A stretch of 49,362 nucleotides of DNA from Raillietiella orientalis (Eukaryota), in contig JAYWIR010000018.1 in NCBI GenBank assembly GCA_036172245.1, positions 3,658,001 to 3,707,362 of the forward strand, in the 5' to 3' direction. This document shows positions 7,477 to 35,952 of the stretch, piece by piece; the first letter of the stretch is position 1; every line of letters starts with the position of its first letter. Made by a program: the position numbers and the translations under genes. The notes beneath the pieces were generated by a model. It did no database searches. It was given only the letters and a program-made list of their open reading frames with translations, and was not told the DNA's origin.

Positions 7477-7581
7477 GTGCAGAACTTGTGATAACCCAAG
7501 GACTTCATAGTGGTAAAAAAAAAGTGCTAATGGTATGGATGAGATTGTAGTGTGAATGTTTTTATAGAAAAATTTTAGAAA

Positions 7582-7619
7582 AATAAATTTACCCCACCCC
7601 TCGTGGGACTTGGGGAAAA
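7582..7619 (+). terminator. A 3' terminus: AATAAA + GC hairpin + A4
   Basis: aataaa tttacccca cccctcgtggg act tggggaaaa; the same terminus occurs at 12307-12344, 15383-15420(-) and 46832-46868(-). Confidence 0.65.
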
Positions 7620-7631
7620 CTGCCGAGTCGG
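7620..7631 (+). repeat. 12-bp target-site spacer between tandem A1 and A2 (ctgccgagtcgg)
   Basis: Exact reverse complement of the TSD ccgactcggcag that flanks A3 (15371-15382 and 21037-21048). Confidence 0.9.
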
Positions 7632-7800
7632 TGAACTTGCTTCGCGGCTCAAAGTATTGTGCGCTTGACAACTTAACCAGTTAATTGTGCTCGTGTGTGC
7701 CCGGAGAGGGGAAGTTTCCAGACGAAACTACAAAAGAAGCGCCGAGGAGATCGCGGCGGAAGACCTGCAGTGGTCCCGTGCAGCAAGACCAGCTGCCAGG

Positions 7801-9588: not shown

Positions 9589-9601
9589 GTCTTCCCCTTT
9601 T

Positions 9602-12200
9602 ATGGCCTCTTCCCTATCGAACACCAAGAGGCTGAACATCGCCTCCTGGAATGTAGACGGTGCTGTCGACCAGGGAAAAAGAAAAAGGATTCTGCGGAAC
9701 ATCGGACAACAAGACATAGAGTTCCTGCAGGAGACCCCAAAGATGGGTCTCGAGATTAGTCAGCAAATTGAACGGCGATTCAACAGGCAGATGTTCGTCA
9801 GCGAGGGAGAACGGAACACGCAGGGTGTGGCGGTACTAATCAAGAACCACTTGGCCCCCACTATTCTGGAAGTGTTGTGTCACCAACCCGGACGAATCAT
9901 CGGCGTGCGACTGGCCTGGTCCGCTACTGTTCACCTCATCCTGGTGAACGTATACGGGCCTCACAGGCTGAAACATCGTTGTGCGGAGGCGCTGCATGCA
10001 GCACTCCGTGAAGAGGTCGCCTCCAAGGACGTCGTGATTGCTGCTGGCGATCTCAACATATTGGATGAGATCACTCATTCCCAAGACGCCAGAGGAAGGA
10101 CGGCGTATCGGCGGCTATCCGACGAGTTCGGACTGGTGTGGCGAACAGCAAGTCACAAGCCGATCGATCACGTCCTCCACAGCACCGAACTAGGGAATCG
10201 CATCCAGGGTTTTCGAGACACATTGACCACTCTGTCCGATCACCCGTTGGTGCGGTTTTCCTTAAGAACGGAGAATCCTCGGAGGAGGCAAGGCACCAAT
10301 GCGGCGCTCTTCAGCATGCCCGCCTGGTTCGAAACCCATCCCGGACATCAGGAGGTCCTGGAGGCGATTCTGAAGGCAACAACAAACCGAAAAGTCGCCG
10401 ACTGGGACAGCCTGAAACACAGGATACACCTGTTTGGAAACATGCAGTTCGGGGACACGAGCTTGAGGCAGGAGGCGTACCGGGAGCTGAACATCCAAGA
10501 TCGCTCACTCTCAAAGTACTTCGATCAGTACGAAAGTCGGTACGTCTTTTAAAGAACATAAAAGGGGAAGTCGGCGTGCTGGATAAGAGAAATCTGGCAA
10601 CAGATATCTTCTGCATCCAGTACGACGGTCAAGTGCGACAGTCGTCCGAAGATATCGTGGATGCCTTTCACATGCATTACACGAATCCCTTCAGGCGACA
10701 ACATGTCTTTTGCTTTAGTCAACAAGCCTTTCTGAGCTATCTCGAGAAGAGGACCGACGACCTCCAGCGGAACAGACTAAACGAGGAATTCTCCGAAGAC
10801 GAGGTGAAGACTGCTTTTGGACAACTGCGTAAGGATGTGGCGGCGGGCCCTGACAGTGTACCTATCACGCACTATCGGCGGTACCTGCATGCCTACGTGC
10901 GTTTGTTTTACCAGTTGACCCTCTGCATCCGCGAAGAAGGAAGACTTCCACAGTCCTTCTACGAGAGTCGGATAAAATTGTTGCCAAAAGGAGGCGACTC
11001 ATGCAGGTTGCTCAATTGAGGCCAATCTCGATCCTGAACTCGGATGCCAAGTGGTTGGCGAAGATCTGGTCCAACCGCTTCGGCAAGTTCATGTCGAGGC
11101 TCATCTCTCCGGTCCAAACGTGTGCAGTCCCTGGACGTCACATGTCGGACAATGTCAAGTGTGCCCAGGCCACCGTCGGACTCAGCCGATACGTCTGCGA
11201 GAACCTGGCGCTGGTGTTCACTGACATGGAGAAGGCTTTCGACTCCATCGACCATGGGTTGCTGCTGAAGGTTCTGGAGAAGCTAGGCCTTCCGGAAGAC
11301 TTCAGCAACTTCGTGAGGGTAGTACTCCAGAACCAGTACTGCCGAATCAAAATCAACGGCCAGGAGACGGCAGCAATTCGGATGGAACTGGGAGTCCGGC
11401 AGGGCGATTCGCTAAGTCCGATGCTGTTCGTCATCTACATGGAGGCGTTGTCGTCCTTCATCGAGAAGAGCGGACGACTGCAAGGCATAACAATCGATGG
11501 CCAGCCTCTTATCCATCTGGCATACGCTGATGATCTACTCTTCTTTATCATGGGAGAGAGAAATCAACGAGCGTTTCTGGATGTGGTAGACCTGATTGAT
11601 CAAGGCCTGGGTCTAAAGATCAACGCCCAGAAAAGCCAGCTCTTGCCCGTTGGAATCCTCGATCTCTCCGCTCTAGCGAAGAGAGGATTCCGAACGGTGG
11701 ACAAGGCCAAGTACCTGGGTGTCTACATTGGCGACGTCTCCGCGTCGAAGCTATTGTGGACCGAGATCCTAGGGAAAACGGCCAAGGAAGCAGCCAAGTA
11801 CACCCGAACGGACCTTGGAATGAAGCGAAAGGCCAACATATGGAACGGAGTACTCCTTTCAAAAGTGGTCTTCGGGGCGGCCTTCGCGAGGATGAACAAG
11901 GACACCACGAGATAGTTCGAAAAGCTGCAACGCAAAACACTGTGGGGCCACTACCGCCCAAGAGTACGTCTCAAACCCCTGTGTCGTCCCAGGGAAGAAG
12001 GCGGTTCCGGGATAAAGTCGCTTGAACACTCCATGGAAATCATGGATACGCGACACTTCCTGGACATGGCCACTCCCTGTTATCTGTTCATAGGGAAATC
12101 GGCATTAGGAATTGCGGAAAAATCCAAGCCTGGACGTTCCGATTCATCCTGAAGAGGATAGAGGACGAGCCCGGGACCAAACATCTGGAAACCCACCATT
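9602..12200 (+). pseudogene. A2 ORF2, frameshifts, stop and about 935-bp deletion near 12076
   Basis: ORFs 9497-10552, 10138-11019 and 11001-11915; sequence jumps from the A1 equivalent of 6430 to 7366. Confidence 0.9.
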
Positions 12201-12344
12201 ATTGCAGAACTTGTGAGAACCCAAGGACTTCATAGTGGTAAAAAAAAAGTTCTAATGGTATGGATGAGATTGTAGTGTGAATGTTTTTATAGAAAAATTT
12301 TAGAAAAATAAATTTACCCCACCCCTCGTGGGACTTGGGGAAAA

Positions 12345-13606
12345 CTATCTTGTTGAGGAGGATGCAGCTGGTTGCTGCGTGTTTTGAGGCAACGCAACGC
12401 TGCTTTCGTTGGATTTTTTCGACGGACCTGCAGACGCCTTCGTGAGTTTATTGACTGAAGCCTCCGAGACGGACAGAGCGCTCAAGGAGACGGTTACCAC
12501 GCAATTTTATTTGGCGTGTCCTCCTTTCGCCTTGTTGCACGGAGCGACTGGTTTTACTGATCCCATTTCGCGAGTAGCGTTTCCGTGATCAGCTACTGGT
12601 ACAGTAACGGTACGCGCGGAGCCCTCTCGCCCTTTTTTGAATGGCTACCCTGCCGCGCGATTGCCCTTTTGGGGCTTTGATGCTGAGGGAGCCAACATTG
12701 AGACTGCGCTCGGGCCTTTTTCATCTTCGGCCTTTCGCGAGTTTCCCTGTTTTTTTTTTTTTTTGAGGATGCGGTTTTCTCTTCTGCGCACTCTTTGGCA
12801 CGCCGGAGTCTAGCAGCCTCCTTTTTTTTCTTTATGTCCGGGCACTTTCTAATTTCGTGCCCGGACTCCTTACAGTAGCGGCACTTCGGGGAAGGGCATT
12901 TTTATCCCTGATGCCCTTCTTTGCCGCATTGCTCGCACGCGCGAGTTTTGCCAACGAACCACAGGGGAACGACCGTGCCGTTGATCTGTAGCGTGGCAGG
13001 CAGCGTGCGGCGGTTAGGAACGGTTACCCTAACCGCAGCAAATCCTGTGTGTACGGAAGGGAATTTCCTGTAGGAACTCTCCTTCCTCCACACCGCATGA
13101 ACGGTTGCGAATTTCGCCAACGCATCCATCAACTGTTTGTCATTGATCTCCGCCTCTACGTCCGAGAGAACAACGACAAAAGACTCGACCATCGCGGAAG
13201 GAAAAACTTTCTTTCCGCGGATGGACAAAGCAGTGCAGAGGAGCCTCTGCACAAGTGCAGCCTGCTTGCATCGGACCTTCACATAGCCCAATGCTGGAAT
13301 AGGCATGAGTGCTACGAGGTCCTCTTCTCGCATTCCCACACGGTAGAGTTCGTCCGCGAACTCCTCCTCAGCGTTATATACCCCACTTACGTTATAGCAG
13401 AGAGCAGGCTTGTAGCCCTGGGCTACATAGGCTTGCATCTCCGCCTGGTCGGGGAGGCATCCTTGTACGGCTGCAGAGGCAGCCACGTCCGCAAAGCTCC
13501 TGGCTGGTGGCGCGGGGCTCGCACACGTTGTCGCCATCACTCCAGCTGCGGAAAGTTCCTGAACCACAGGCTCGAGGTCTTCCACGTTGCGTTGTTCACT
13601 GCTCAT
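12345..13606 (-). pseudogene. B1 ORF1 (MSSEQRNVED...; CEQCGKEGH and CRYCKESGH knuckles), stop at 12902, truncated by A
   Basis: Clear homology to the ORF1 at 14138 (KVRCKQAALVQRLL, KFATVHAVW, TRACEQCGKEGH). Confidence 0.85.
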
Positions 13607-13689
13607 CCTTAGGGATGTGCAGTGGGATGCACAAACACAACCAAACAGCGGAACCACGGAGCGACACGAAATCACGTCCGACTCGTATG
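12345..13689 (-). mobile_element. LINE B1, 5' part (5' UTR + ORF1), interrupted by the A dimer
   Basis: 5' end cgagtcggacgtgatttc resembles the B2 5' end at 38106; ORF1 is homologous to C and B2 ORF1. Pairing it with the ORF2 at 1-3393 is inferred from strand, order and B-type similarity. Confidence 0.8.
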
Positions 13690-14022
13690 AAGGCAAACGT
13701 TAAAATCGCCTGCAGCCAGATGGGCATTCCGCACGCCTGCCTCGGTCAACCAGTCGCGACGGAGGGCAAGGAAAAATTCTTTCCTGGCCCTCCTCTTCGT
13801 CAGGTCCGCTCCGCTCGGGGCGTAAACGTTCGTGACGATCAGGTCAATCGAGACGGACCAACTGAGAGTCAGCTGGCCAACATGACCGTGATCGTCGAAC
13901 CGCACGCCCCGAGCCGCGGCCTCGACGGCTGGATGAAGCAGGTAGGCGACACCGCAACTTTTCGCTCTCCCACACCTGTACCATAGCCGCCCTTCGGAGA
14001 TCCGTTCGATCTCTTGCGCTCG
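13690..14022 (-). mobile_element. LINE D2-type ORF2 APE fragment (D2a) trapped between C1 and B1
   Basis: Encodes AQEIERIS..RCG..GQLTLSWS..TNVYAPSG..AHLAAGDFNV; homologous to 45135-45470. Confidence 0.88.
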
Positions 14023-14137
14023 TACAGTGCACACGTGTTTCCGCGTCTATCCGCGCCAACGATCGGGCAACTTTGTGCCTGCGTTTTCGCTCGCACTTGT
14101 GTGTTCCTGTGCAATCTGCCAAGTAGCATAGTGCAAC

Positions 14138-15382
14138 ATGGCCAGTACACAGGATAGTGTGGAGGAGCAAGCCACTGGATGCACTTCAGCTGCAGTTGAA
14201 GCGGCCGCATCCTCCGTAATGGTTTCCTCGCCCCCGGTGAGGAGTTACGCCGCCGTTACCTCCCAAAGACCAGGACCCTGCGATGCGGAGTTCCAGGCAT
14301 ATGTGTCATCAGGATACATGCCTGCACTCCGTTATAAGGTCAGAGGGCTCCTTAACGGGAAAATCGGTCGTGAGCTCAATGATGAGCTCGTCCGGATCGG
14401 CGTTGGCGAGAAGGAACTCCTTGCCATAATGCCTGCTGGCAGGATGGAATATACGAAGATTCGGTGCAAGAACGCAGCACTTGTGCAGCGCCTTCTCCGT
14501 ACGCCGTTGACCATCAATGGCAAGGAAGTCCTACCTACCGCGATGGACGACTCTTTTGTCGTTCAATTGTGCGACATCGAACTGAAAATCTCCGACCGCG
14601 ATGTTGTAAGCGTGCTGGCGAAGTTCGCCACCGTGCACGTTCTGTGGGGGAGGCCGAACCCTTTGAAGGATTTCTCCTCTGTCCACATAGGACAAGCCTC
14701 CAAGGGGATAACCGTCGCGAACAGGCGTGTTGTGCCTGAGCAGCTGCAGGTCAACGGCACGGTCGTTCACATGTGGTTCATAGGCCAGACTCGCGCGTGC
14801 GAGCAGTGCGGCAAGGAGGGACACCGAATAAAAGAGTGCCCCTCTCCAAAATGCCGCTATTGCAAAGATTCCATGCACGAAATCAAAAAGTGCCCGGTAC
14901 TTGCAAGAAAAAGAGCCGCAGTGGAAATTCGTCGGGTTCAAGAGACCACTGCACGAAAAACCGCAGCGGCAAATAAAAACCGTCGTCCGCAAAAACTCGG
15001 AAAAAACAACGAGCGATCCGCGGATGAAAAGAAAGCATCCCCGCCCGCAACGCCCCGAAAGAAGAAAGTCACGGCGGGGAAGCCAATTCAAAAGGGGCGC
15101 GAGGGTTTGACGCGTGCCGTGCCCTCCCTCGCTGCAGAACTCGCAGGCACCTCTCCGAGCCAGGAACCAGGAAATCTCCGTAACACCCTGGAGGGAAAGG
15201 TAGCAAGACAGGAAGATCGCAACAGTGCGAAGACTTCTTGCCCCGTTCCGTTGTCCCTTCCGAGTTCCGGACAGCCCCACTGCAGCGCAGGCCCCTCTGC
15301 AAAGGCTACGAAAGCCGTAAAAAGCAGCGTCGCGACGAGCAAAAGCACGCTGCATGCAGTCGCCCCATCGCCGACTCGGCAG
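14138..15382 (+). pseudogene. C1 ORF1, N-terminal part (two CCHC knuckles), interrupted by A3
   Basis: CEQCGKEGHRIKEC and CRYCKDSMHEIKKC. Removing A3 and one TSD joins ..SPTRQ to ERSDLPNVKKVTPLPP.. in frame, giving about 634 aa. Confidence 0.9.
15371..15382 (+). repeat. Left TSD of A3 (ccgactcggcag)
   Basis: Perfect 12-bp direct repeat with 21037-21048. Confidence 0.95.
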
Positions 15383-15524
15383 TTTTCCCCAAGTCCCACG
15401 AGGGGTGGGGTAAATTTATTTTTCTAAAATTTTTCTATAAAAACATTCACACTACAATCTCATCCATACCATTAGCACTTTTTTTTACCACTATGAAGTC
15501 CTTGGGTTCTCACAAGTTCTGCAC

Positions 15525-18500
15525 TCATGGTGGGTTTCCTGCTGTTTGGTCCCGGGCGTCGTCTTCAATCCTCTTCAGGATGAATCGGTTCGTCCAGGCT
15601 TGGAGTTTCCCAGAGTTTCTAATGCCGATTTATCTCTTCAGGAGCCCTTGTAGGATCTCCATCGGTGGTGCGGCTCTTCTGGCTTTCCTCATTTTCCACC
15701 ACCGCAAGTGTATGGCGGTGAAGAAGAGGGCGATGGTCGTCCTCACCATGGGATTGTAACAGGGAACATTACCATTCCCCTGAAACATCCCGGCGAAGAT
15801 CTCCATTACGGATCTGTTCGTAAGTCCGATGATCCTTTTCAGGATCAGCCAGTCATGCAGCAATGTGGGACACGTCAAGACGTGAAGTCTCGTGTCGATG
15901 TCTCCACATGCTGTGCAGTCTCGATCTTCCCTTCTTCCGGTGTAGTGCTGCAATCGGGACCCACTCTGGATTCCTCCATGATAAAACATCAGGAGGTCAT
16001 CCTGGGTGCCCGGCGGAAGGCCACTCCTCCACAGTGTCGTGCCAATCGCTAGCAGCTTGATCCGGTCACTCCCGTAGCGATCGGCGGCTTTCTGGAGGGC
16101 ACTGATATCACTGTCTTCTTCTTGAATTAGTCTTCGGAGGTTTCTTTTGGTTACCCTGGACCATGCAAAGTCGTTGTGGTTGAACCACACTTCGCGAGTC
16201 ATGTTGGTAAACCTTCCTAACATCATCTCTATATACCTAAGTATACGAGTGTGATGTAGGTACCCTCCTCGTTTCCACTCCTGGATTCGTTGAAGGGTAA
16301 CTCTGGACCGCTGGTGGATCCAGCTACTCGTGTCCGGCGGGACAGGAAGCATCCAAGGGATCACCAGGATAAACTCGTCCTGCCAGAGTTCCCTACTTCT
16401 CGGCACGATCTTGATTTTGTGCTTTCGCACCAGCCGTTGCTTCCTCGTCCAGGTTGGGTCGATTTTTTTCCATTCGCCTGCTCGGCCTAGCAGCGCAGTC
16501 ATCAGGCCTTTCGAGTTGTTCAACAACAACGCGTAGGCCCTGTGCGCCGCATACGGCCAGTCATCCCAGTGAGTGGCAATGTCCAGGATGTGTCGCGTAT
16601 CCATGATTTCTATGGAGTGTGCAAGCGACTTCATCCCGGAACCGCCTTCTTCCCTGGGACGACACAGGGGTTTTAGTCGGACTCTTGGGCGATAGTGGCC
16701 CCACAGTGTTTTTCTCTGCAGCTTGTCGAACTCCCTCGTGGTTTCCTTGTTCATCCTCGCGAAGGCCGCCCCGAAGAGCACTTTTGGAAGGAGTACTCCG
16801 TTCCATATGTTGGCCTTTCGCTTCATTCCAAGGTCCGTTCGGGTGTACTTGGCTGCTTCCTTGGCCGTTTTCCCTAGGATCTCGGTCCACAATAGCTTCG
16901 ACGCGGAGACGTCGCCAATGTAGACACCCAGGTACTTGGCCTTGTCCACCGTTCGGAATCCTCTCCCCGCTAGAGTGGAGAGATCGAGGATTCCAACGGG
17001 CAAGAGCTGGCTTTTCTGGGCGTTGATCTTTAGACCCAGGCCTTGATCCATCAGGTCTACCACATCCAGAAACGCTCGTTGATTTCTCTCTCCCTTGATA
17101 AAGAAGAGTAGATCATCAGCGTATGCCAGATGGGTAAGACGCTGGCCTTGCCATCGATTGTTATGCCTTGCAGTCGTCCGCTCTTCTCGATAAAAAACGA
17201 CAACGCCTCCATGTAGATGACGAACAGCATCGGACTTAGCGAATCGCCCTGCCGGACTCCCAGTTCCATTCGGATTGCTGCCGTCTCCTGGCCGTTGATT
17301 TTGATTCGGCATTACTGGTTCTGGAGTACCACCCTCACAAAGTTGCTGAAGTGTTCCGGAAGGCCAAGCTTCTCCAGAACCTTCAGCAGCATCCAATGGT
17401 CGATGGAGTCGAAAGCCTTCTCCATGTCAGTGAACACCAGCGCCAGGTTCTCGCCGACGTATCGGCTGATTCCGACGGTGGCCTGGGCACACTTGACACT
17501 GTCCGACATGTGACGTCCAGGGACTGTGCACGTTTGGACCGGAGAGATGAGCCTCGACATGACCTTGCCTAAGCGGTTGGACCAGATCTTCGCCAACCAC
17601 TTGGCATCCGATTTGAGGATCGAGATTGGCCTCCATTGAGCGACCTGCGTGAGGTCGCCTCCTTTTGGCAACAATTTCATCCGACTCTCGTAGAAGGACT
17701 GTGGAAGTCTTCCTTCTTCGCGGATTCAGAGGGTCAACTGGTGAAACAAACGCAGGTAGGCATGCAGGTACCGCTGATAGTGAGTGATGGGTTCGCTGTC
17801 AAGGCACGCTGCCACATCCTTGCGCAGTTGTCCAAACGCAGTCTTCACCTCGTCTTCGGAGAATTCCTTCTTTAGTCTGTTACGCTGGAGGTCGTCGGTC
17901 CTCTTCTCGAGATAGCTCAGAAAGGCTTGTTGACTAGAGCGACAGAGATGTTGTCGCCTGAAGGGATTCCTGTAATGCCTGTGAAAGACATCCACGATGT
18001 CCTCAGACGGCTGTCGCTTTTGACCGTCGTACTGGATGCAGAAGATATCTGTTGCCAGATTTCTCTTCTCCAGCACGCCGACTTTTCCTTTTATGTTCTT
18101 GAAGACGTACCGACTTTCGTACTTATCGAAGTACTTTGAAAGTGAGCGATCTTGGATGTTCTGCTCTTTGTTTGCCTCCTGCCTCAAGCTCGTGTCCCCG
18201 AACTGCATGTTTGCAAACAGGTGTATCCTGTGTTTCAGGCTGTCCTTTTCGGTTTGTTGTTGCCTTCAGAATCGCCTCCAGGACCTCCTGATGTCCGGGA
18301 TGGGTTTCGAACCAAACGACATGCTGATGAGCGCCGCCCTGGTGCCTTGCCTTTGTCGAGGATTCTCCGTTCTTAGGGAAAACCGCACCAGGGGGTGATC
18401 GGACACCGTAGTCATAGTGTCGCGAAACCCCTGGATGCGGTCCCCAAGTTCGGTGCTGTGCAGGACGTGATCGATTGGCTTGTGGCTTGCTGTTCGCCAG

Positions 18501-19036
18501 ACCAGTCCGAACTCCTCGGATAGCCGTCGATACGCCGTCCTTCCTCTGGCGTCTTCCGAATGAATGATCTCATCCAAGATGTTGAGATCGCCAGCAACTA
18601 TCACGACGTCCTTAGGGGCGACCTTTTGCCGGAGTGTTGCATGCAGCGCCTCCGCACAACGATGTTTTATCCTGTGCGGCCCGTACACGTTCACCAGGAT
18701 AAGGTGAACAGTCGCGGACCAGGCCAGTCGCACGCCGATGATTCGTCCGGGTTGGGGACAGAACACTTCCAGAATAGTGGGGGCTAAGTTGTTCTTTATT
18801 AGCACCGCCACACCCTTCGTGTTCCGTTCTCCTTCGTTGACGAACATCTGCCCGTTGAATCGCTGTTCTATTCGCTGGCTTATCTCGAGACCCATCCTGT
18901 GGGTCTCCTGCAGGCACACGATGTCTTGTTGTGCGATGGTCCGCACAATCCTTCTTCTTTTTCCCTGGTCGACCACACCGTTTACGTTCCAGGAGGCGAT
19001 GTTTATCCTCCTGGCGGTCGATAGGGAAGAGGCCAT
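15525..19036 (-). pseudogene. A3 ORF2 (APE-RT-CCHC), multiple small indels and stops
   Basis: ORFs 18266-19141, 17726-18208, 17312-17680, 17057-17269 and 15630-17396. Confidence 0.9.
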
Positions 19037-19049
19037 AAAAGGGGAAGAC

Positions 19050-20864
19050 CTATTTTTTGGCCTTCCTGAGCTTCTTCTGTCTGAGAGAGCGTGCTCTTCC
19101 AGACAATGAAGAAGCAGCGGGCTTCTCGCTGCCGGCGTCACTCTCCGTACCTGTGAGGTCGGTTACTTCCGCCTCCTCCGTCGAGTGTTCCGCCTGCGCG
19201 ATCAATTTTCGAGATAGCGCCTCTATCTCGACCTTGGCGCAGAAGTTCGCCTTCACGTCGAGAAGCTGTTTTTCTAACTTCTCGCGTTCAGCGACCTCCA
19301 CCACCTGGTTGATGTTCTCTTGTGCAGTGCAGATCTTCTGCAAGATTTTCTCTTGCTGAGGACCGCTCTGCACCTCCATGATCTCCTCCGCTAGTGTTGC
19401 CAACTCCTCCGTAGTCTGCAGAGCCTCCTGCGACACTTTAGTGGCTTCCTGTCTCTCTTCCTTCGCGCCTTCCTGCGCTACCTCCATCTTCTCGCCTTCC
19501 TGCTCTGCTGCTTCCAGGATTTGAGGAGTTCCTTGCTCCTTGACGAGCATCCTCCTCTTTCCCTTCTTTCCCACTTCTATGAAGCCGTCCGCCGACACCG
19601 GGACAGCTTCTTTCACTTTTTTCTGCCTTCCTGCCTTCTGAGGCTGTTCGGCCTCCTTGATGTTTCTCTCTCTTACGGGAGAGAGACCTCGAATCCTTCT
19701 GCAGTTTTCAAACTCCGGACAGCTCCATTTCGCATGTCCATGTTTATTGCAGAAGGAGCACACCTCCGGCTGCGGGCAGTTTCGGACTTGATGTCCTACT
19801 TTGCCGCAGCGGAAACAACGACACGTTGGGCAAGAGCCGGCCCTGTGACCGAACTGCTTGCACCCGGTGCAGAATACCGGTTGTTGCCGGTAACGCACAT
19901 TCACTCCCTGGGATTGTTCGTCAATAACGGCCAATCCAGGGATCACCGCTCCCTCCCTCAACTTCATCTTGGCGATCATGTCGCCAGAAAATATGTTTCC
20001 AGAGAACTTCTGGAAATCAAGGTCCAGAACTTCCCCAAACTGCTCCAAGTAATTCCACACCGCTAGTTGCGGTGTGAGGATGGAGATGCCGTTCAAAAAG
20101 ACGGTTGTGTATGGCATCTCGCCAATACCACAAACCATCCGTCCTTGTATATTGATCCCCTTCTGGATCAATCGCTCTCTAATGTTTTCACAGTCTGTAA
20201 AGACTGTGAACCCGTTGTTTGATGGAATGATCGCCTGAATGCGATCAAAGTCTATGTCCGTCTTGTCGAGGGACAAATAGACCTCCCTGATGTTATTAAA
20301 TTTTATTAGCCCCGTCTTGAAGATAATGGGCTTCACGTTGGGGCCTATTTCAACTATTGGTCGGTCCACTTTTAGTACTTTTCCGCTAAGCGGCTTACCG
20401 AATTTCCTAGGTGGGTGGACACTCGCCTGTCCAGCCGCCACCGACGCATAAGAAAAGGGCTGCGACGCCGCAGCCGAACAAGATGGCGTCGCTCCCTGCA
20501 CCGCGTGGTCGCCCGCGGGTCCCGCCTGGGACGCCACCGCCGCGGGCGCAAACCTCGACGTTGCCGCCGTTACCGCCGCGGGCGGCACCCTCGGCATCGC
20601 CGCCGCAGGCGCGACCTTCCCCGCCGCGGGCACGATCCTCGGCGTCGCCGCCGCGGGCACGACCTCCGCCGTCGTCGCCGCGGGCACGACCTCCGCCGTC
20701 GTCGCCGCGGGCACGACCCTTGGCATCGCCGCCGCCGGCGCAGCAAAGCCCGCCGCGGGCGCGATCCTCGGCATGCCTGCCACCGCCTCGCCGTTGCCGC
20801 ACGTTACCTCCATGGCTTCCATGGGGGACGACGGTCTCTCCACTCCTCTTCTAGGTGCCTGCAT
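19050..20864 (-). CDS. A3 ORF1 gag-like nucleic-acid-binding protein, intact (about 604 aa from the first ATG)
   Basis: Open frame with CTGCKQFGHRAGSC, CFRCGKVGHQVRNC and CSFCNKHGHAKWSC knuckles; the start codon choice is uncertain. Confidence 0.85.
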   Translation of the reverse strand: MQAPRRGVERPSSPMEAMEVTCGNGEAVAGMPRIAPAAGFAAPAAAMPRVVPAATTAEVVPAATTAEVVPAAATPRIVPAAGKVAPAAAMPRVPPAAVTAATSRFAPAAVASQAGPAGDHAVQGATPSCSAAASQPFSYASVAAGQASVHPPRKFGKPLSGKVLKVDRPIVEIGPNVKPIIFKTGLIKFNNIREVYLSLDKTDIDFDRIQAIIPSNNGFTVFTDCENIRERLIQKGINIQGRMVCGIGEMPYTTVFLNGISILTPQLAVWNYLEQFGEVLDLDFQKFSGNIFSGDMIAKMKLREGAVIPGLAVIDEQSQGVNVRYRQQPVFCTGCKQFGHRAGSCPTCRCFRCGKVGHQVRNCPQPEVCSFCNKHGHAKWSCPEFENCRRIRGLSPVRERNIKEAEQPQKAGRQKKVKEAVPVSADGFIEVGKKGKRRMLVKEQGTPQILEAAEQEGEKMEVAQEGAKEERQEATKVSQEALQTTEELATLAEEIMEVQSGPQQEKILQKICTAQENINQVVEVAEREKLEKQLLDVKANFCAKVEIEALSRKLIAQAEHSTEEAEVTDLTGTESDAGSEKPAASSLSGRARSLRQKKLRKAKK

Positions 20865-21036
20865 CCTAGCAGCTGGTCTTGCTGCACGGGACCACTGCAG
20901 GTCTTTTGCCGCGATCTCCTCGCCGCTTCTTTTTTTTTGTTTCTTCTGGAAAACTTCCTTTTTCCGGGCACACACGAGCACAATGAACTGATTAAGTTGT
21001 CAAGCGCACAATACTTCGAGCCGCGGAGCAAGTTCA

Positions 21037-21048
21037 CCGACTCGGCAG
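21037..21048 (+). repeat. Right TSD of A3 (ccgactcggcag)
   Basis: Direct repeat of 15371-15382. Confidence 0.95.
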
Positions 21049-21708
21049 GAGCGGAGCGATCTCCCGAATGTCAAGAAGGTGACTCCGTTGCCGCCTTTTA
21101 AAGGCGTAGCGAAAGCAACGCCCCCAGAGAACGCAGCGAAAATCCCAGAGGTTTCCGCAACTACTGTCGCGGAAGCTTCCGAAAATCGCGAAGGCGAATG
21201 GAAGGTTGTGGAGAGGAGGAAAGAAAAATCTCCAAAGAAAGCTCCGCAACCTCCATCCCTGAGCTCTTCCAAAGGAAAAAGCAGTCGCGCGAATACGAAA
21301 ACACGCGCGGCTTGTGACTCTTCCAAGGAAAAAGCCAACGCCTTCAACGCGTGCAAGTCTGCTTCTGTGACCGCCGAGAAGACCATTCCGGTGCAATCGG
21401 ACGGATGCAAGCGCACGTCGATCGTGCGAGCATCAGACTTCGCAAAGGAGTCCGATAACGCAGCGGAACGACGCGTAACTCGCGCGGGAGCGAGCGCCCG
21501 CAGGGCTGAAGCCCTGAGGCGTGACACACTCGCCGCGGAACGGCGAGTGCTCACCCCGGAACCCACAGGTTCTGCACCCGGGGAGGAGCACCCGATTACG
21601 TGCAGCACAGTTGAGGCCGGTGGCGACCGCGCCCTCCAGCCCGTCGTGCTGCTTACTGCCCGCTCGCCGGGTGAGGCGAGCACCACGGCCTCGCTTTCCC
21701 AGCCGTGA
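21049..21708 (+). pseudogene. C1 ORF1, C-terminal part
   Basis: In frame with 14138-15382; ends in TGA overlapping the ORF2 ATG; tail (CST..GGDR.LQP.VLL) matches B2 ORF1. Confidence 0.88.
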
Positions 21709-24700
21709 TGAGGGCAATCGCGTCTTCTCGTCGTGTTGCCGTAACGTCTTGGAACGTCAACGGGCTCCAACACGAGGAGAAGAGGCGACTAGTGGCTGAC
21801 GCTCTGCGGGCCTTCGACTTGACGCTCCTGCAGGAGATTCACAGCATCTCCGGAGAGCAGGCTGCCGAAATCGAACGGCGCGCGGGCGGAACGCTAGTTT
21901 ATAGGTGCGGCGTTGCACGTACGTGCGGCGTCGCTTTCCTCGTGCGAGGAACTTTGGCGGGAGCGGTGCGCAGCGTTCGTTTCGACACGGAAGGCCGAGT
22001 GGGACAGCTTGTACTCAAGTGGTCCGACTCGATCGACCTTGTCGTAACCAACGTGTACGCGCCGAGCGGTGCTGGACGATGGGCCGAAAGGATTGAGTTC
22101 TTCGGTACACTTCAAAGCCAGTGGCTCACTCGATCTAACCCTACTGTGGCCCATCTCATTGCGGGGGACTTTAACGTCCACCTGCTTTCCGAGAATAGAT
22201 CCCACAAAAGGGAAAAGTTGCTAGCGGAAGAGATGTGCGCGTCCGTGCACGCGTGCAACTTGTTCGCTAGCGACCCTGTTATGGCAGCAACGCCGGACCA
22301 CGTATACCTTGATGAACACTTGCTCTGTCGAGTGGGTCGGAGAGGTCCCGTGCCGTCCGTGCTTTCCGACCACAACAGGCTCGAGTTCGAGTTGCTCCCG
22401 CCAGGCAAGGGGCCTCCAAACTGTTTTTGGAGGATGCCGGCAGACTGGCTAAGCCACTTGGAGGCGGCTGAGCATCTTCGCCAGTACCTCCTCGGCTTTG
22501 CCATAAGTGAGCTCGAGGACTGGGACGATCTGAAAAGATCGGTCCGCGAGTTCTGCTGCCGGTTTCCCTTGCACCAGCTTCCGCGCGGCTTCGGAGAGGG
22601 CGTAGACAACAGCAGAGATTTTCTGCAGGCCCGCTCCTTTTCCAGGCGCGCGGACGTTGGTCGATTATCCGAGTACAAGGCCAAGGCCGAGCGCCAGGTC
22701 TGGCAGTCAGGGGCGACAGTTCTGCTCGACGACCAGGACCGGGAATGCTCGGCTCCAGCCGACGTGCGACGGATAGTCAGGCGCTATTACTCTTCTCTGT
22801 CTGCAGAGGCACCGACGGAACGCAGCCTCTCCCGGCTGCTTCTGCCGATTGATGCACCTGTTGTAGACGAGGAGGAACGCGCGCGTCTTGATGAGCCCTT
22901 CACGGCAGAGGAAATTTCCTCGGCCATCTCGGGGCTCAAGAGACGAAAAGCGCCAGGCGAAGATGGGCTCCCCGCGGAATTCTTTCAGTGTTTTGCGGCG
23001 GAGCTCATCCCTCTGGTGCTCCAGCTATCGTCGCTGATGCGAGACTCGCGCGATGTCCCCGCCTCGTTTCGCTCAGCGAAGGTGCGTCTACTGCCGAAAG
23101 GCGGAGATTTGCGCCAACTGAACAACTGGCGTCCGATCACATTAGTGAATTCGGACGTCAAGTTGTTCTCGAAACTTTGGGTGGCGCGGATGCGTAGGAT
23201 CGCGGAATCCTTGGTAAGTCCGGAGCAGACGAACGCTGTTCCTGGGCGGTCCATGGACGCGAATCTCTTGTTCATCCGCACATGGCTGCAATTGCAGCAT
23301 CGTGTGGCGGTGGATCGTCGTGCGGAAGCGACGCCTTCGATCTCTCACCGACGGAGGCGCGGGACGCAAAGGGAGACACCGGGAGCCTTGGCGGTTGCAG
23401 TCGATCTGCACAAAGCTTTCGATTGCGTGAACCAAAAGCTTCTTCTTGAGCTTTTGGAACGTCTGGGTCTTCCGGCATCCCTGTTGGCGTACTTGCGCTC
23501 CTGCTGGCGCCACGCGATTACATCCATTGTTTTCAGTGGCTGTCGCGTGTACGGCGTGCCGGTACGACGAGGAATGAGGCAGGGTGACAGCTTAAGCCCG
23601 CTGCTCTTCAGCATCTATTTTGAATTGGTGCTGGAGGCTTACAGGCTGACGCTAGCCAACCTGCCGAGCTCCTGTCCAGGTACGCCCGCCGTGGCAGCCT
23701 ATGCCGACGACCTGCTTCTCCTGTTGCCCATGTCCACCCCGACAGCGTCGCTTGAAGATTTCTTTGAGTTGATCCGTCGTGGTGCGGGCGTGAGCGTTAA
23801 CAGGAGTAAGTGTATGGTTGTTCCGGTTGGTGCGACGTGGGAGGGGCAGTCCGACTGGATCGACCTGGGGATCCCCACGGGCAGGTACCTCAGGTACCTT
23901 GGCGTGCCGTTGGGCGACTTCTGCGTCTCAGAAGCGTGGTCGGACTGCCTTCGGAAGGCAGAGCGTGCACTTGGCCCGTTTTCAGGAGGCGAGTTCGTCT
24001 TGCCGGAACGGGCCTGCATCTGGAACACCTTCGTTGCCCCCCTCCTCCGCCCCCTGTTTTTTGTTTGTCCACCCCCCAGGAAGTCAAAGTCTGGGCGCAG
24101 CGCCTTCTACGCAAAGCGTTGTGGGGCGCTGCAAGATCCCGTGTTAGACTTAAAGACTTGGTGGCGCCGCGTCAGGATGCAGGCTTGGGCATCCTCGACT
24201 TAAACAGCATCGAACTGCAGGTGCAGTTTCGCATGCTGCGGCTCTGTGCCAAGCTGTGGTGTACACCGTGGTGCTTACCCGCACGCCTTATACTGAGGCG
24301 CTGCACGGGAAGCGAGGGACTGCTTTCGTTGCTACCCCACTTTCGGCACACCAGAATAGGGTTTGGCTTCCCGCTGAGGCAGCTGTCCTCACTGCTGGAA
24401 GCCCGAAGCTGGATCTCCTGCCGCCCCATGAACATTAATGCATGGCGGCAGGAATCTTTTTCATCGTGGGCAGCTTCCGAAGGAACGCGCCCGGAAGATC
24501 TTCGACGCCTGCGACTTCTCCTCAGTCATCAAATGGACGAAGTCATGCAGGACAAGAAGTTGTCGGATCGTCTGGCCGCCACACCATCCGCCGTAGCGCT
24601 GTCTGCCCTCAGGGCAAGCAACGACGGTTGCCTACCGGCGGAATGGGAGTTCTCCTGCAAAATAGCGGGAGTCAGTAAGCTCCTCGGCAGCTGGACGACA

Positions 24701-25279
24701 AAGGAGCTGGTGCAAGCCGCCACACCTCGGAATCGGGCAAAGGGACTGCTTCGGTGGAGCGAACATTTAAGTGTGCCCCCCGGAGAGATAGTGGTTCCCC
24801 CCGTTTGTTTGGACAGCTCCGTGTTCCCCCTTAAGTGGAAACAAGATGTGCTGCTCTTTTTACATTGTGCATTTCACTGTAATAGGCAGCGAAGCATCGT
24901 TTCAGGGGGAGCTGCTTTGCCAAACTGTTTAAGGTGCGGAGAGATCGAGTCTTTTCCGCACCTTTTGTTGGACTGCGGTGACCTCCGGGAACTGTGGCGA
25001 AGGCTCACTTCGGCCATCATGCCACAAGGAGGCACTGCCATTGATGTGCTGCGGCGCTTCTTCAGCAGAAATGGACTTTCGGTTGGCGCGATTGTCGCAA
25101 CTATGTGTTGCGTTCGCGCCATCGTGAAGGCCCGCTACGCCCTGGAGTTGTCATCGCAGCGAAGGGAGGCTCACCTGCTTGCAGCTCAATTCATGGAGAA
25201 GGCTTCAAGGTGGTCTCATCTTCGTGACAAGGTGAATGAGGACATCACCGGCATACATCGCCGGTTTACACACCTTTGA
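21708..25279 (+). pseudogene. C1 ORF2 (APE-RT-CCHC), apparently a single frameshift near 24075
   Basis: ORFs 21705-24203 and 23810-25279; SWNVNG, QEIH, GDFN, SDH, DLHKAFD, QGDSLSP, YADD, CLRC..HLLLDC. Confidence 0.92.
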
Positions 25280-25604
25280 GAACGGCGTAATCCGGTGACC
25301 CCTGCGACCTCTCGCCCACCCATACCCCGTCCCCGTTCGCTCGGTAAAATTTCCGGTGCCCATGCTTTTATCCCCGTGTCTTCCAGAGCGATCCCAAAGA
25401 CCCTTATCCCGTCCTCCTTATTCATTGTTTTTATTTTATTTTGGTTTCTTTGTGTTTCCCGCCCCCCACACCGTTCACAAAACTGTTACTCTGGCCTGCG
25501 TGCCAGCAATATTCTCTTCATTCTTGTTCAGTCGTCGGTTGGGAGTTTGGTTCCCAACTGGTTTATTTTGTATAATTGCTTTTTTTTTTGGTTATGCTAT
25601 ATGG

Positions 25605-25634
25605 AATAAACGCCCCGGCGTGACCGGGTGAGAA
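25605..25634 (+). terminator. C 3' terminus: AATAAA + cccgg/ccggg hairpin
   Basis: aataaa cg c cccgg cgtga ccggg tg agaa; no poly(A). Confidence 0.65.
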
Positions 25635-27280
25635 ATCTCCCGGGCTTGATCTGCGGAGATCACGTGGATCTCCTGCAGCAGCACCAGGTCGAAGGATGCC
25701 AGGGTGGCGGCCACGTCACGCCTCTTGCCGTCGTCGCTTAGCCCGTTCACGTTCCAACAGGCGATCAGCAGACGACGGCGAGAGGCGATTCCCGGCATTA
25801 TGGCTGGGAAAGTGGCGTGGCGGCACCTGCCGCGGGGCAGGTGTAGGAAAGGTCCATCGGTACGAGGACCATCGGAACGAGGACGGAGGCCTCTTCAGGC
25901 GCCTGGGGTAGCTGTTCGGCCTCCATCCTCACCATCCCCTCCGAGTCCGAGCGTGGAATTCTCTCGGGCGACGGGTCCCGGGAGTTTCTCATGCTCATGG
26001 CACCCTCGCTACCGGAAGCCATCTCTTCCCCTTCGTCGGAAGAGACGATCTTCCGGGGCATTGTGGACTTTCGTCCTGCCTTTTTGCGGGGTGCCGCGGA
26101 GATGGATGCTGTGTTTCCGGCCTTCACCTCGGGGTCGAAAGTGGCCGCAGTAGCTTTTAATTTTTTCGCGGTTCAGAGCGGTTTCGCTCCGTTTCGCCAC
26201 GTTCTTTCCCTTCTAATGAGAGTTTTTCTTGGGATCGACCTCTTGACCCTCGCCCTTGACCTTTTCGGCGTTTTTCGCCGGGGTTTCGGGGCTGGCCTTC
26301 GCCTTGGTGGCGGAAGTGACCTCCTTAGCAGCAGCACGAGCTGCCAGCTTTTTCCTCTTTTTAGCCGCGCGCTTTCTCGCGTTTTTCGCGGACACGACGC
26401 GGACTGTGTTTTGGGGGCACACCAGACGGGTGTGCCCCGCTTGTTTGCATTGCTGGCACTGCACGCTCGGACACCTCATTTTAAGGTGACCAAAGCTGCT
26501 GCAGCAGCTGCAAAACTTGAGTTTACCCACGCACCACACGTCAACGGATTCACCGTTGACGGTGAGTTTGTGGGGAAACTCACATCCCTCGCGAACCCTC
26601 ACTCGCGCTGCACCGAGGCCGCCAAGCAATTCGTCGTAATCGACAAAAGGAGTAGGCTTTCCCCACAGCGCGTGGACAGTTGCGAATTTTTCCAATTCGT
26701 TCCGGACGGCCTCCTTCGTCATCCGGAACGTGATACCGTTCAGGTGAATGATCACCGACCGGTCTTTTGTAATTGGGAGAAGCCTCCGGCTGCCCATAAT
26801 TACGGGGGTTCGCAGAAGTCTCTGCGCAAGAGTTGCCTCCTTGCAGATAACTTCCACAAATTGATCCCCGCTTCTGACGGACATAGCCAGAAGCTCCTCT
26901 TTCTGTACGCCGAGAACGCGCATCGCCTGTGAGAAGGCGCGCGCGTTCTCGGGAGAATATAGACCGCCTACCTTATATAGAAGGGGTGGGTTATACCCCT
27001 CCTCCAGGTAAGCGCGCATTTCCGCCATAGCCGCTGGCGTAGGTGCCGCAACCACGGCGTTCCAAGCCCTGAGTAGGGCCGGGGGCGCATCCGTGCTGGC
27101 GGGAGCCTCCACTGATGCGGGAGCCCCCACCTCCATCTGCTCCAAGGGCAATAAGGTCATCGCCCCCGGATCCTCACCGGTGGTGGTATCAGGCATTTCT
27201 GCCTAATCCTCCACCCACACCACGCACAAGCACCAACGGAAATGGAACTCAGCAGCAACGAAATAACACGTCCCCTCGAC
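25635..27280 (-). mobile_element. LINE D1 copy a (D1a): 5' UTR, ORF1 and first about 55 codons of ORF2, cut by C1
   Basis: Near-identical to 30928-32833. Confidence 0.92.
25798..27196 (-). pseudogene. D1a ORF1 (stop at 26213, about 245-bp deletion near 26147)
   Basis: Compared with intact ORF 31091-32749. Confidence 0.9.
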
Positions 27281-27295
27281 GCTCCGGAATCTCCA
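27281..27295 (+). repeat. Probable target-site spacer between tandem D1 copies (gctccggaatctcca)
   Basis: Repeated at 32834-32848, where it reads in frame as L-R-N-L-Q into E ORF2 DWDLFK; the left edge is uncertain. Confidence 0.72.
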
Positions 27296-27665
27296 TTGAA
27301 ACCCGGGTGCGCCGGGACGTTTATTCTAACGAATAAACTTATGCAATCTGTGACTGGACCAGTAGTCCAGCCACGCCCTGGAAAGATATAGCCTGCCGGG
27401 CTACCGGTGCGCAGACCGGCGCGGTCGACCTCGGCAGCAGAAAGGAGGGGGAACGAAACAAAAAGAAAACAAAAAAATAAACAAAAATCAGGGAGGGAGC
27501 GGGAAGGGATCACAGTCTGCTGGGAGGGCCCGTCATCCTCTGGAGGATGCCGGCAAGCTGTTTCTGCTTGTGTGGTTCCAGATGGGGCCATCGCGTCGCC
27601 ATCCTGAGAAAACGGGCAGCATACACGTTGGCATCCCTGTCGCTGGATCCTCCCGTCGCTTTGCT

Positions 27666-30600
27666 TCATGCCACGACGATCCCGCGTAGGCAGCACAGGG
27701 CTGCAAGCGAGGCCGCTGGAGGTAGGGCGTCACGGACGAAGAGGGGGCGCAAAGCGTCTCTGGGGTTGCCTCCGGGGATCCCCAGGGCTGCGGCAAAGCG
27801 TTCCCACAAGGGACGGAGGGCAACACAATCCACTAACAGGTGGGGGAGGTATTCCCTCTCCCCGCACCTGACACAATTAGGGTTGACACCCCCCCGCGTC
27901 CAGTGGTGTCGGCGGGCGTTGCAAGGAAGCCCCCAATGCAACACCATCAGTGCCGACTGTTGCCACTTCATGGGGAGGGTGCGCGAGTCCATGAGCACCG
28001 GAGGCCATTCGAGATGTTCCTCTGGAACATCCAGTAGCTCTCCCCAGCGCAAAAGTCCATTTGGGGTGGTCCTCGGGGTCGCAGCGTTGGTGAGCTGACC
28101 CGTTCTCCAATCCCCGATCTTCTTTGCCCTGCTGGCGATCTTCACAGTTACCTCCCATTGTGCCGCGACGTCGCTGCCCAGATGTTCCCGTAGGGTAGGC
28201 AGTACCGCAGCAAGGGAGGTTCTTTGTGCCCACGCTCTCCTTCGGGGATTCTCGATGATTTCTCGGAGCGTGCGGCGGGCATGCGGCCCGAACAGAGCTA
28301 TTCGCTCGTGTTGCGAGCTCTGCTCCTGAATCATCGCCCACGTGCGGACGGTTTCCTGCAACCAGGCAGGACCGTTCGCGGGGCGTACGAGGATCCGCGC
28401 CGAGTTGTTCTTCACGAGCTTGGCCGCCCTCCGAAGTTGAAGTCCGCAGTGGCAGATGGGGCTTCGGAGTGCAAAGTAGGACGAGAGTCCCGCATTGCCG
28501 GTGGCCCGCTCGACGAGGAGACGTGCAGGGAGGCACCAAGGGGTGCACCAATTTCCTGCCATAAAGGCAACAACTCGGAACTGGAGCTGTAGCTCCAGCC
28601 GCTCCAACGTCAGGAGGCCCAGACCACCATCCCGACGAAGAGCGCACAAGTCCGAAAGACGGACTCGGGGCCTCACTCTGCCCCAAAGGGCGATCCTCAG
28701 GAGGTCCTTCGTCCTCTTCTTTGACTCCGCTGAGGGGGGGCAAACAAAAAGCAAGGGGCGAAGGAGGGGGGCCGCAAACGCGTTCCACGCCGCGGCCCGT
28801 TCCTGCAGGTAGAACCTGCCGTCCTGGAACGGGCCGATCGCCGCCTGAGCCTTCTGAAGGCAGCCGGACCACGCTTCCGCAGGGGAGTACTCCCCCAACG
28901 GCACACCAAGGTACTTGAAGTACCTCACCGTGGGGATCCCCAAACGGACCCAGTCCTGCGGCCCTGCCCACGCCGCTCCGACTGGCATTACGGACGACTT
29001 CGCCCTGTTCACCGTCAGTCCTGTTCCACGACTCAGCAGGTCGAAGAAGTCCTCGACCGCCGAGGCCGGGGTGGACATAGGCAGCAGCAGCAGAAGATCG
29101 TCCGCGTACGCCGAAACCGCAGGCGTACCGGGGCAATCGCACGGCAGGTGCGCAAGAGTCTCCCTATACGCTCTCAGCACCAATTCGAAAAAGGCGCTAA
29201 AGAGCAGGGGGCTCAGGCTGTCTCCCTGCCGTATGCCGCGTCGCACCGGTACTCCGTGCACGGTTTGCCCGCTGAAAAGAACATTAATGAGCGCGTCGCG
29301 CCAGCTGGAGCGCTGGTAGGCCAACAAAGAGGCCGGGAAGCCCAAGCGTTCCAGAAGCTCCAGCAGGAGATTCTGGTCGACGCTGTCGAATGCTTTACGC
29401 AAGTCGACAGCGACCGCAAGGGCTCCCTTCCCCACCCAACCGTTCCGTCTCCCGCCAACGGACGCACCGGAATTCCGGCTGCTCAATAAGCCCCTTCCTT
29501 GTTGGAGCTCTAACCATGTGGAAGCGTGGAACAGGTTCGCCTCCGTGCTCCGCCCGGGAACAGCATAAGTCTGTTCCGGGCTGATGAAGATGTTGGCGAC
29601 CCGTCCCAGGCGCTCTGCCCACATCTTGGCTATCAACTTGGCGTCCGCATTCACTATTGTGATGGGACGCCAGTTGTTCATGCTCCTTAGGTCTCCTCCC
29701 TTCGGGAGGAGCCGCACCTTTGCTGAACGAAACGAGGTGGGAACGTCACCTGTTTCACGGATCAGCAAGGTGAGTTGCTGTACCAGGGGGGTAAGCTCAG
29801 CCGCGAAAGTTTGGTAAAACTCCGCGGGCAGGCCGTCCTCCCCTGGAGCCTTCCGCCTCTTGAGCTTTCCGATGGCCGAGAGGATCTCGTCCATCGTGAA
29901 AGGCTCGTCGAGGCTTCTTTTCTCCTCCTCCCCGATCGCTGGAGCACCTTCCTGAAGCAGAAGTCGTGAGACGTCCCGCTCCGGAGGCGCCCTGGCGTAC
30001 AGGGAGGAGTAAAATTTTCTTACTATCCCGCGTTTCTGAGCGGGAACCGAGTGCTCCCGGCCCTGGTCGTCCAGCAAGCTGGCCGATCCGGATTGCCAGG
30101 CTTCCCTCTCGGCTCCCGCTCGGTACTCTGCTAACCTGCGCATGTCGGGGGTTCTCGCGTAACGTCGGGCCTGAAGATAGCACCTTTCGTTACGCGGCCC
30201 CTCCCCAAAACCCGCAGGTAGGCGATGCAGGGGGAACTGGTCGCAGAACTCCTGGACCGACCGCTTGAAGCGGTCCCAGTCCTGAAGTGTCTGCATCCAG
30301 AAGCTCCGAATAAACGCGCGGAGGTGCTCCGCCGCGTCGGGAAACTTCAGCCAGTCCCCTGGCAGACGCCACGCTGACGAGGGGGGGCCCTTGTCGCGCG
30401 GACGCACTTCGAACATGATCCGACCATGGTCCGACAGCTCGGATGGTACCTTGCCGCGCCTGCTTACCCGAGAGCATAGGTGCTGATCAAGGTACACGTG
30501 ATCGATGCTGCTTTCCATGGCCGTGTCCCCGGCCAACAAGTTGCGCGTGTTCATTTCTGCGCACAACTCGTTGACGCGGTCGTTCAGTGTATCCGGCGCA

Positions 30601-32749: not shown

Positions 32750-32833
32750 TGCTGCCTAATCCTCCACCCACACCACGCACAAGCACCAACGGAAATGGAA
32801 CTCAGGAGCAACGAAAAGACACGTCCGCTCGAC

Positions 32834-35800: not shown

Positions 35801-35850
35801 GCGGATGTAGAGTTTTAACAATAAACGCCCTGGGCGTACCCGGGTGTTAA
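32834..35850 (+). mobile_element. LINE E copy 1 (E1), 3' part downstream of the D1 insertion
   Basis: ORF2 from LQDWD to its stop, D-like 3' UTR, aataaacgccctgggcgtacccgggtgttaa terminus. Confidence 0.9.
32835..35639 (+). pseudogene. E1 ORF2 (RT-CCHC), open but lacking APE; catalytic YADD reads YAED
   Basis: ORF 32973-35639 extends upstream in frame to the D1 junction; DLHKAFD, QGDRLSS, YAED, CARC..HLIVDC. Confidence 0.9.
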
Positions 35851-35867: not shown

Positions 35868-35952
35868 AACACGTGTTTTTCCTTCACTCCTCAAAGAGTA
35901 GTAGGAAAGCGCTTTCTTGTGTGTGGTGTTTTGTGTACATCGTCGGTGTCCA

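Follow-up and report, generated by a model that had tools for sequence, protein, structure and literature searches.

In this study, we revisited the flanks of a long interspersed nuclear element (LINE), here called C1, in a 49,362-nt stretch of Raillietiella orientalis contig JAYWIR010000018.1, which we refer to in its whole length as the window. C1 (plus strand, 14023-15382 and 21037-25634, interrupted by a further LINE, A3) is inserted in antisense orientation where D-family LINEs code for their endonuclease, and we show here that its two flanks derive from different target copies, the left one of a lineage that we call D2 and the right one of a second lineage, D1. The explanation that we favour, at slightly less than an even chance, is a homologous exchange between two C copies that occupied the same site, one in a D2 element and the other in a D1 element.

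In D coordinates, the end of the C1 left flank and the start of its right flank overlap by 14 nt, as a target-site duplication would. An earlier note on this DNA had described the two copies of this overlap as differing at four positions and as belonging to different D lineages, and this description was borne out: the left copy (14009..14022; ATCTCTTGCGCTCG) is D2-type, the right copy (25635..25648; ATCTCCCGGGCTTG) is D1-type, the two agree at 10/14 positions, and the typing holds in the wider flanks. The right copy is identical (14/14) to 30928-30941 in D1b, a full-length D1 element in which the C site is unoccupied. The left copy agrees at 13/14 positions with the 14-mer that stands left of another C copy, C2, at the end of the D2-type element D2b (45457-45470; ATCTCCTGCGCTCG), and at 10/14 with D1b, while the D2b and D1b 14-mers agree with each other at 11/14. 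Both the D2-type letters beside C2 and the empty site in D1b were found where the note had placed them, and its wording 'just after QEIH' stands for a gap of five codons (V I S A D) between the H codon and the start of the 14-mer (LLQEIHVISAD, then QARE). Outside the overlap, the left flank (13691-14022) differs from D2b 45139-45470 at 32/332 positions (90% identical) and is 72-74% identical to D1b, and the right flank is 97.1% identical to D1b over 25635-26147 and 94.0% identical over 26146-27295. D1b and D2b are 71-74% identical to each other right up to the C site, and therefore the type switch at C1 is abrupt. D1b and a further element, D4, run uninterrupted through the site, and we estimate that, if the two breakpoints in a 5.5-kb element were unrelated, they would be this close together in under 1% of cases.

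The overlap is 14-17 nt long, since the letters TAC at 14023-14025, which C1 shares with one public contig, may be D2 sequence instead of the start of C; the 5' end of C1 could thus be 14023 or 14026. To the right of C1, about 21 nt are typable against D2, that is, the 14-mer and seven letters taken from one public contig, the window holding no D2-type 5' part. C1 is the only C copy with both ends, so that the target-duplication length of C is read from this one 14-nt overlap with its 10/14 copies. Two other insertions of the superfamily in the window, both intact, are flanked by perfect repeats of similar length, namely A3 (15371-15382 and 21037-21048; 12/12) and D1b (27282-27295 and 32835-32848; 14/14). 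A 14-bp duplication is therefore expected for C, and four mismatches with lineage-diagnostic letters are not; with three of the four at positions diagnostic for D1 and D2, they are at odds with a single insertion into a single D copy. Two other ways of placing the boundaries were considered and rejected. A duplication of about 30 nt, in which D2 homology would extend to the CACGTG at 14032-14037, is contradicted by an empty-site public contig with a D1-like distance between the 14-mer and CACGTG, and also by the homology of 14023-14050 to the 5' ends of C3, C4 and D1. A C element carrying a target-like 3' tail was discarded because the annealed stretch stays target DNA in target-primed reverse transcription, and because the right flank is of D1 type over its entire 1.66 kb.

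The three C junctions in the window lie in three different D copies (D2a, D2b and D1a) and in the same register, which upholds the claim of the note that C had entered D1 and D2 at the same site of the endonuclease gene. Site-specific homing of C, with a single target position used in two D subfamilies, is thus supported. A second family, C', behaves in the same way at a different position. The junction between D2a and C4 (13690/13691) and that between D4 and C3 (38104/38105) map to within about 10 nt of each other in D coordinates, both in sense orientation, and the 5' ends of C3 and C4 align with each other and both abut D right after its GDFN codons. It follows that C' is a second homing family and that D2a is a resident D2 copy which has been hit twice; the piece of D2a between the two elements is only 332 bp long because C4 is a second, independent insertion. 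That C4 might be 5'-truncated at a random breakpoint was rejected on the same alignment of its 5' end with that of C3 and their common position after GDFN. C3 and C4 are about 77% identical to each other, and C' elements are 67-71% identical to C1. The target sites of C and C' lie beside catalytic motifs of the D endonuclease gene, QEIH and GDFN respectively.

A third family, A, is inserted in antisense orientation into the tail of C ORF1 (open reading frame 1), at a single site shared by three cases, in C1, C2 and the distant C4. In C4 this assignment rests on a flank that is identical in register at 37/60 positions, compared with at most 28 at 399 other offsets. The 12-mers at the A site stand at 15371-15382, 21037-21048, 46819-46830, 7620-7631 and 12345-12356. 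At its 5' end, A2 has a C1-type 12-mer although its 3' flank is C4-type (6/12), which makes this a second mismatched repeat in the window. This 12-mer contains CGAGTCGG, which is also present in the C4 5' end, so that the 12-mer may belong to A itself. Taken together, the window would seem to hold a homing hierarchy in which A goes into C, C and C' go into D, and D1 goes into D3, where it presumably homes to a fixed site of its own.

C1 is an interrupted copy of an autonomous L1-like LINE, with a CCHC knuckle in ORF1, apurinic/apyrimidinic endonuclease (APE) and reverse transcriptase domains in ORF2 and a putative hairpin at its 3' end. Its 5' part (14023..15382) comprises the 5' untranslated region and ORF1, with an ATG at 14138, the CCHC knuckle and no stop in 415 codons, and its 3' part (21037..25634) comprises the end of ORF1, ORF2 and the 3' untranslated region. 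Pfam matches in ORF2 (21675-24203) are Exo_endo_phos at 9.4e-12 and RVT_1 at 6.6e-22, and the zf-CCHC match in ORF1 reaches 21.6 bits at a cut-off of 20.8. The ORF2 frame is broken somewhere in 23810-24203. The element ends in ...AATAAACGCCCCGGCGTGACCGGGTGAGAA without poly(A). A3 (15383-21036, minus strand) is a full-length, inverted A-family LINE of 5.7 kb within ORF1, and C1 and A3 together make up 11.6 kb of multi-copy sequence.

According to the exchange model, the C endonuclease would nick the antisense strand of the D endonuclease gene at one defined site, and target-primed reverse transcription would insert C with a 14-bp target duplication, thereby breaking D ORF2. C would have entered this site independently in D2a, which is D2-type, and in D1a, which is D1-type. 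An exchange between the two co-oriented C copies, or between A copies nested in them, which would be at least 95% alike, could then have taken place by unequal crossover or single-strand annealing, with deletion of the DNA between the two loci, and would have left one hybrid C1, with a left duplication copy from D2 and a right one from D1. As each parent gives its own duplication copy, the model predicts exactly the register and the lineage letters that are seen. The observations which speak for it are the flank typing with its 14-nt register, the abrupt switch in type and the perfect repeats at A3 and D1b, and in addition the resident D2a with its C4, the independence of the C insertions, the mosaic structure of the A copies and the letters of the empty-site public contig.

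With regard to independence, collinearity between the C1 and C2 loci starts at 13691/45139 and extends as far as the window does; however, they are not plain segmental duplicates, which is ruled out by their uneven divergence and by the relationship of their A copies. D2a and D2b differ at 32/332 positions (9.6%), C1 and C2 at 56/1345 (4.2%, over 14023-15367) and A3 and A4 at 146/2552 (5.7%), the difference between the D2 and C values being significant (Fisher p = 1.7e-4). Among 15 informative sites in the four A copies, one groups A3 with A4, four group A1 with A3 and ten group A1 with A4, and therefore A3 and A4 are not sister copies. This pattern indicates that the two D2 loci were hit by C independently and that C and A have each hit their own site repeatedly. 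The A copies are also mosaic: between A1 and A3, identity is 98.5% in a stretch of about 400 nt (A coordinates about 4400-4800) and 89-95% in the adjoining sequence, and different parts of A3 have different nearest relatives, which indicates that sequence exchange among copies occurs in this region. A comparison of C1 and C2 ORF1, with 15 synonymous and 35 non-synonymous codons and no stops, did not discriminate between the readings.

Further evidence comes from a public sequencing run (X1), in which a third of the sampled words of the window were found as short contigs. We matched 111 contigs to the window, the longest one shown being 864 nt, and the identities given here come from eight of these 111 pieces. 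No contig spanning C1 was among the listed pieces. Contig ends near 14021/14022, which could be branch points of the graph, were left out of the evidence, and no conclusion was drawn from places that lacked cover. In one contig, 14025 is followed by four letters of its own and then by 25656; read against the window, this is a D2a-type site without interruption, equal in length to that of D1. In this contig the D2-type letters run 7 nt past the 14-mer, at positions where the C1 right flank has D1 letters. The contigs are 96-97% identical to C1 in the ORF1 region and 98.3-99.6% identical in the ORF2 region, a difference which hints weakly at a hybrid, and a contig over 14022-14885 has the C2 letter at at least 32 of the 36 positions at which C1 and C2 differ (32 of the contig's 35 differences were listed). 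A metagenome scan gave no match for the D2-type site.

Several observations weigh against the exchange model. The window is without a second complete C copy, and C2 leaves it after 1.36 kb of C, inside A4. The gap between ORF1 and ORF2 identities could be an ordinary difference in rate, as C1 and C3 are likewise 66-67% identical in ORF1 and 74% identical in ORF2. A D2 lineage with a D1-like 5' part may exist, the D2 5' part being absent from the window, and the empty-site X1 contig continues into sequence that is at least 95% like the right flank over a length that is not shown. The mismatched repeat at A2 could be a sign that such flanks arise systematically and not by a rare exchange. In addition, the homopolymer runs at 20929, 24071, 25461 and 25579 are each one letter shorter than in the X1 contigs, which could be read as the mark of an assembly from noisy long reads; the one at about 24071 is a C-run inside the stretch where the C1 ORF2 frame breaks, and this frame break may be a consensus error.

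A rival proposal is that the hybrid exists in silico only, the assembler having switched between C copies, or between the A copies nested in them, in D2 and D1, which we regard as unlikely. It would be helped by these short homopolymer runs, by the 11.6 kb of multi-copy sequence, by the existence of X1 contigs that are 98-99.6% identical to the 3' part of C1, and by the misassembly of nested Zepp-like LINE clusters in earlier Chlamydomonas releases, as mentioned in the excerpt of PMC9940879 that we used. However, the copies in the window differ by 4-10%, which long-read assemblers normally resolve, both sides of C1 are coherent, with C4 at its canonical site in D2a and D1a and D1b linked by a perfect 14-nt repeat, and no break was seen in anything tested. 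Somewhat less probable still is that C1 is one insertion into a D element with a naturally D1-like 5' part, and that a gene conversion tract from D1b or another D1 copy then overwrote the right duplication copy; the tract would stop at the C1 boundary, where homology ends. The first 134 nt of D1a to the right of C1 show no difference from D1b, 5.3 kb away, and are followed by about 3.5% differences (P about 0.008), which suggests a conversion tract and not a crossover inside C, and similar high-identity tracts are present in the A copies. The public contig that joins D2a-type letters to sequence at least 95% like the right flank would also fit; however, its right side may be only a few tens of nucleotides long, and it lies in the strongly conserved LQEIH-coding stretch, which is also identical in D4. 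The conversion model moreover needs a D lineage that is 72-74% D1-like on the left and about 96% on the right, with the boundary exactly at the C site.

The two other explanations place the origin of the mismatch in the insertion itself. In one of them, which we consider improbable, a single insertion bridged two cut D copies: reverse transcription would have been primed on D1a and the far end of the complementary DNA joined to the top strand of D2a. The DNA between D1a and D2a would have been deleted or rearranged, and C1 would be one non-hybrid element. Target deletions and rearrangements can accompany L1 insertions, both junctions of C1 are at canonical positions 14 nt apart in D coordinates, and many target copies lie close together in the nest. 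However, the flanks would be the same as after a post-insertion exchange, and the lower ORF1 identity of C1 to the public contigs leans weakly to a hybrid. In the other, the C RNA would start in a D2 sequence upstream of its donor, and this leader, once copied, would be resolved through its homology to the target, so that the D2-type letters beside C1 would stem from the donor. D2a and D2b differ at 6/132 positions next to C, compared with 26/200 further out (Fisher p = 0.013), so that the near part of D2a is as similar as C itself (4.2%), a contrast which hints at a co-moved or converted leader. Co-transcription with the target has been described to sharpen R2 integration (in the portion of PMC4494074 that we drew on). 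However, the far 200 nt are also D2-type and the mismatch with the right flank therefore persists, and no duplicated D leader was seen. The suggestion of the earlier note that a flank had been carried along thus lost ground, as D2a is a resident D2 element with an independent C4 at GDFN, the same site as that of C3 in D4, and we consider it very unlikely.

Self-comparison and Pfam scans of the long frames indicate that nearly the whole 49-kb window consists of nested non-LTR (non-long terminal repeat) retrotransposons of one superfamily, and insertion into existing copies has built a LINE cluster across nearly all of it. The elements are APE-type non-LTR retrotransposons and L1-like; the families are 65-78% identical to each other, and each element has an ORF1 as well as an ORF2 that codes for an APE-type endonuclease plus a reverse transcriptase. 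From left to right, the C'-subfamily element C4 (156-3387 and 12345-13690, minus strand) is interrupted by A1 (3394-7619, plus) and A2 (7632-12344, plus), and its 5' part (12345..13690, minus) is about 69% identical to C1 and abuts D2a after the GDFN codons. D2a (13691-14022, minus) is a D2-type piece coding for part of the LINE endonuclease between C4 and C1, in which the frame RAQEIERISEG...AGDFN is open. Beyond C1 follow D1a (25635-27295, minus), the D1-type 5' part from its own 5' end to the C site, of which the last 14 nt (27282-27295) are the repeat common with D1b, and the full-length D1b (27296-32848, minus). D1a is without 245 nt, and another 15 nt, that are present in the ORF1 region of D1b (26145 vs 31439-31683). 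Next are D3 (32849 to about 35850, plus), D4 (about 35850-38104, plus) and the C'-family element C3 (38105 to about 41822, plus), and finally D2b (41823-45470, minus), a D2-type LINE of which the 3' part is present as far as the C site, the 5' part of C2 (45471-46830, plus) and A4 (46831 to the end of the window, minus), which is inverted and runs off the window. The D2b 3' end abuts the reverse transcriptase region of C3 in antisense at 41822/41823, as an insertion of D into C', of which this is the one case.

In D1b, ORF2 (27666-31187) matches Exo_endo_phos (2.7e-15) and RVT_1 (4.9e-23), and ORF1 gave no Pfam match; both APE and reverse transcriptase domains are present in the pieces of A3, and zf-CCHC is also found in the ORF1 of A3 and D4. 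The zf-RVT match in D1b, at 17.2 bits, is under the cut-off of 27.5, although its best database relatives do have this domain (PF13966). These relatives are distant: 75 proteins among 8000 candidates scored had E <= 1e-3, the best at 5.6e-43, with identities of 22-31%, and the named matches are from fish, Coccomyxa ('LINE-1 ORF2', E 1.2e-21, 28% identity) and fungi. Matches in a protein atlas were to reverse transcriptase and APE clusters only. No poly(A) tail was found at the 3' ends of the C, D or A elements of the window. Instead, four C and D 3' ends (25605-25634, 27296-27325, 35820-35850 and 41823-41853) consist of AATAAACG followed by a short putative CCCGG..CCGGG hairpin, a T and five letters (GAGAA, TTCAA, GAAAA and GTTAA), and the A-family 3' end reads GGGGAAAA; the 5' ends of the elements have a common CGAG..GGACGTG..TTTC motif. 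A metagenome scan for the C 3' end gave no match, and 120 loci with a 16-nt 3'-end motif in prokaryote genomes, being from unrelated bacteria, were treated as chance and were not used.

Three pairs of elements, A1-A2 (7600-7640), D1b-D1a (27270-27330) and D3-D4 (35839-35870), stand head to tail, the 3' end of the upstream element abutting a short repeat at the 5' end of the downstream one. Such pairs are expected if a regenerated target site is used again. The 14-mer that flanks D1b is homologous to D3 and D2b sequence and hence comes from the target, and an insertion of D1b into the regenerated site upstream of D1a accounts for the D1b-D1a pair.

Several known systems resemble this arrangement in part. 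Zepp and ZeppL, according to the excerpt of PMC8226300 available to us, are L1-type LINEs of green algae that nest into existing copies and form dense clusters, and the LINEs of the window are, on that description, alike in being L1-type and nested in a dense cluster. Such clusters are also difficult to assemble (PMC9940879). The Coccomyxa protein among the D1b ORF2 relatives is a further, distant, likeness. However, the window contains several families, each with a fixed site in another family, and its copies are mostly full-length, whereas Zepp arrays, as far as the excerpt describes them, consist mostly of 5'-truncated 3' ends of one family; poly(A) is absent from the copies in the window. 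Homing inside other transposons is known from APE LINEs of the Tx1 clade, for which the part of PMC4494074 that we used lists Tx1L in Tx1D, Tx1-Mar in Mariner-N4 and Tx1-8_Crp in LTR elements. The likeness extends, within what that text covers, to homing to one sequence inside another transposon, and fish relatives with zf-RVT are among the best D1b ORF2 matches. In the window, however, the targets are coding sites of autonomous LINEs of the same superfamily and are arranged hierarchically, and the best identities of the window proteins to the databases (22-31%) are too distant for a clade assignment.

The R1 and R2 elements of ribosomal DNA combine strict site specificity with a short duplication of fixed length, do not rely on poly(A) and use their site again. 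The target in the window differs in being the endonuclease gene of another mobile element and not a multicopy RNA gene of the host, and, unlike R2 with its restriction-like endonuclease, the window elements have an APE domain. In LTR elements, L1 and Alu, non-matching target-site duplications reveal homologous recombination between elements, and C1 is likewise one element between non-matching duplication copies. It differs in that its flanks are homologous and in register, because C is site-specific, so that the mismatch consists of lineage-diagnostic letters and not of unrelated sequence. As judged against the excerpts on Zepp, ZeppL and Tx1 that we consulted, the cross-family hierarchy with its fixed coding-site targets sets the window apart from these systems, by which we do not claim that it is unpublished.

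Taken alone, the mismatch between the C1 flanks is of modest interest, being what recombination among repeat copies, or else a faulty assembly, ordinarily leaves behind, although site-specific elements make such recombinants easier to detect through their in-register flanks and lineage-diagnostic letters. The homing hierarchy is more interesting: at least three LINE families in 49 kb each occupy one fixed coding site of another LINE family, and these sites are used in more than one subfamily of the target. This provides a testable case of LINE-on-LINE homing, in which endonuclease specificity would be directed at sites in a rival's endonuclease gene and ORF1, and it offers a mechanism for the growth of Zepp-type arrays and for head-to-tail tandems through the use of regenerated targets. 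A bolder proposal, which we think unlikely, is that homing LINEs parasitise each other's genes and that, as a site-specific endonuclease would cut many clustered targets, the C1 flanks stem from a single retrotransposition event which linked two D copies after both had been cut, with a rearrangement of the array. If this were true, homing LINEs would be direct drivers of structural change in repeat-built, possibly centromeric, regions.

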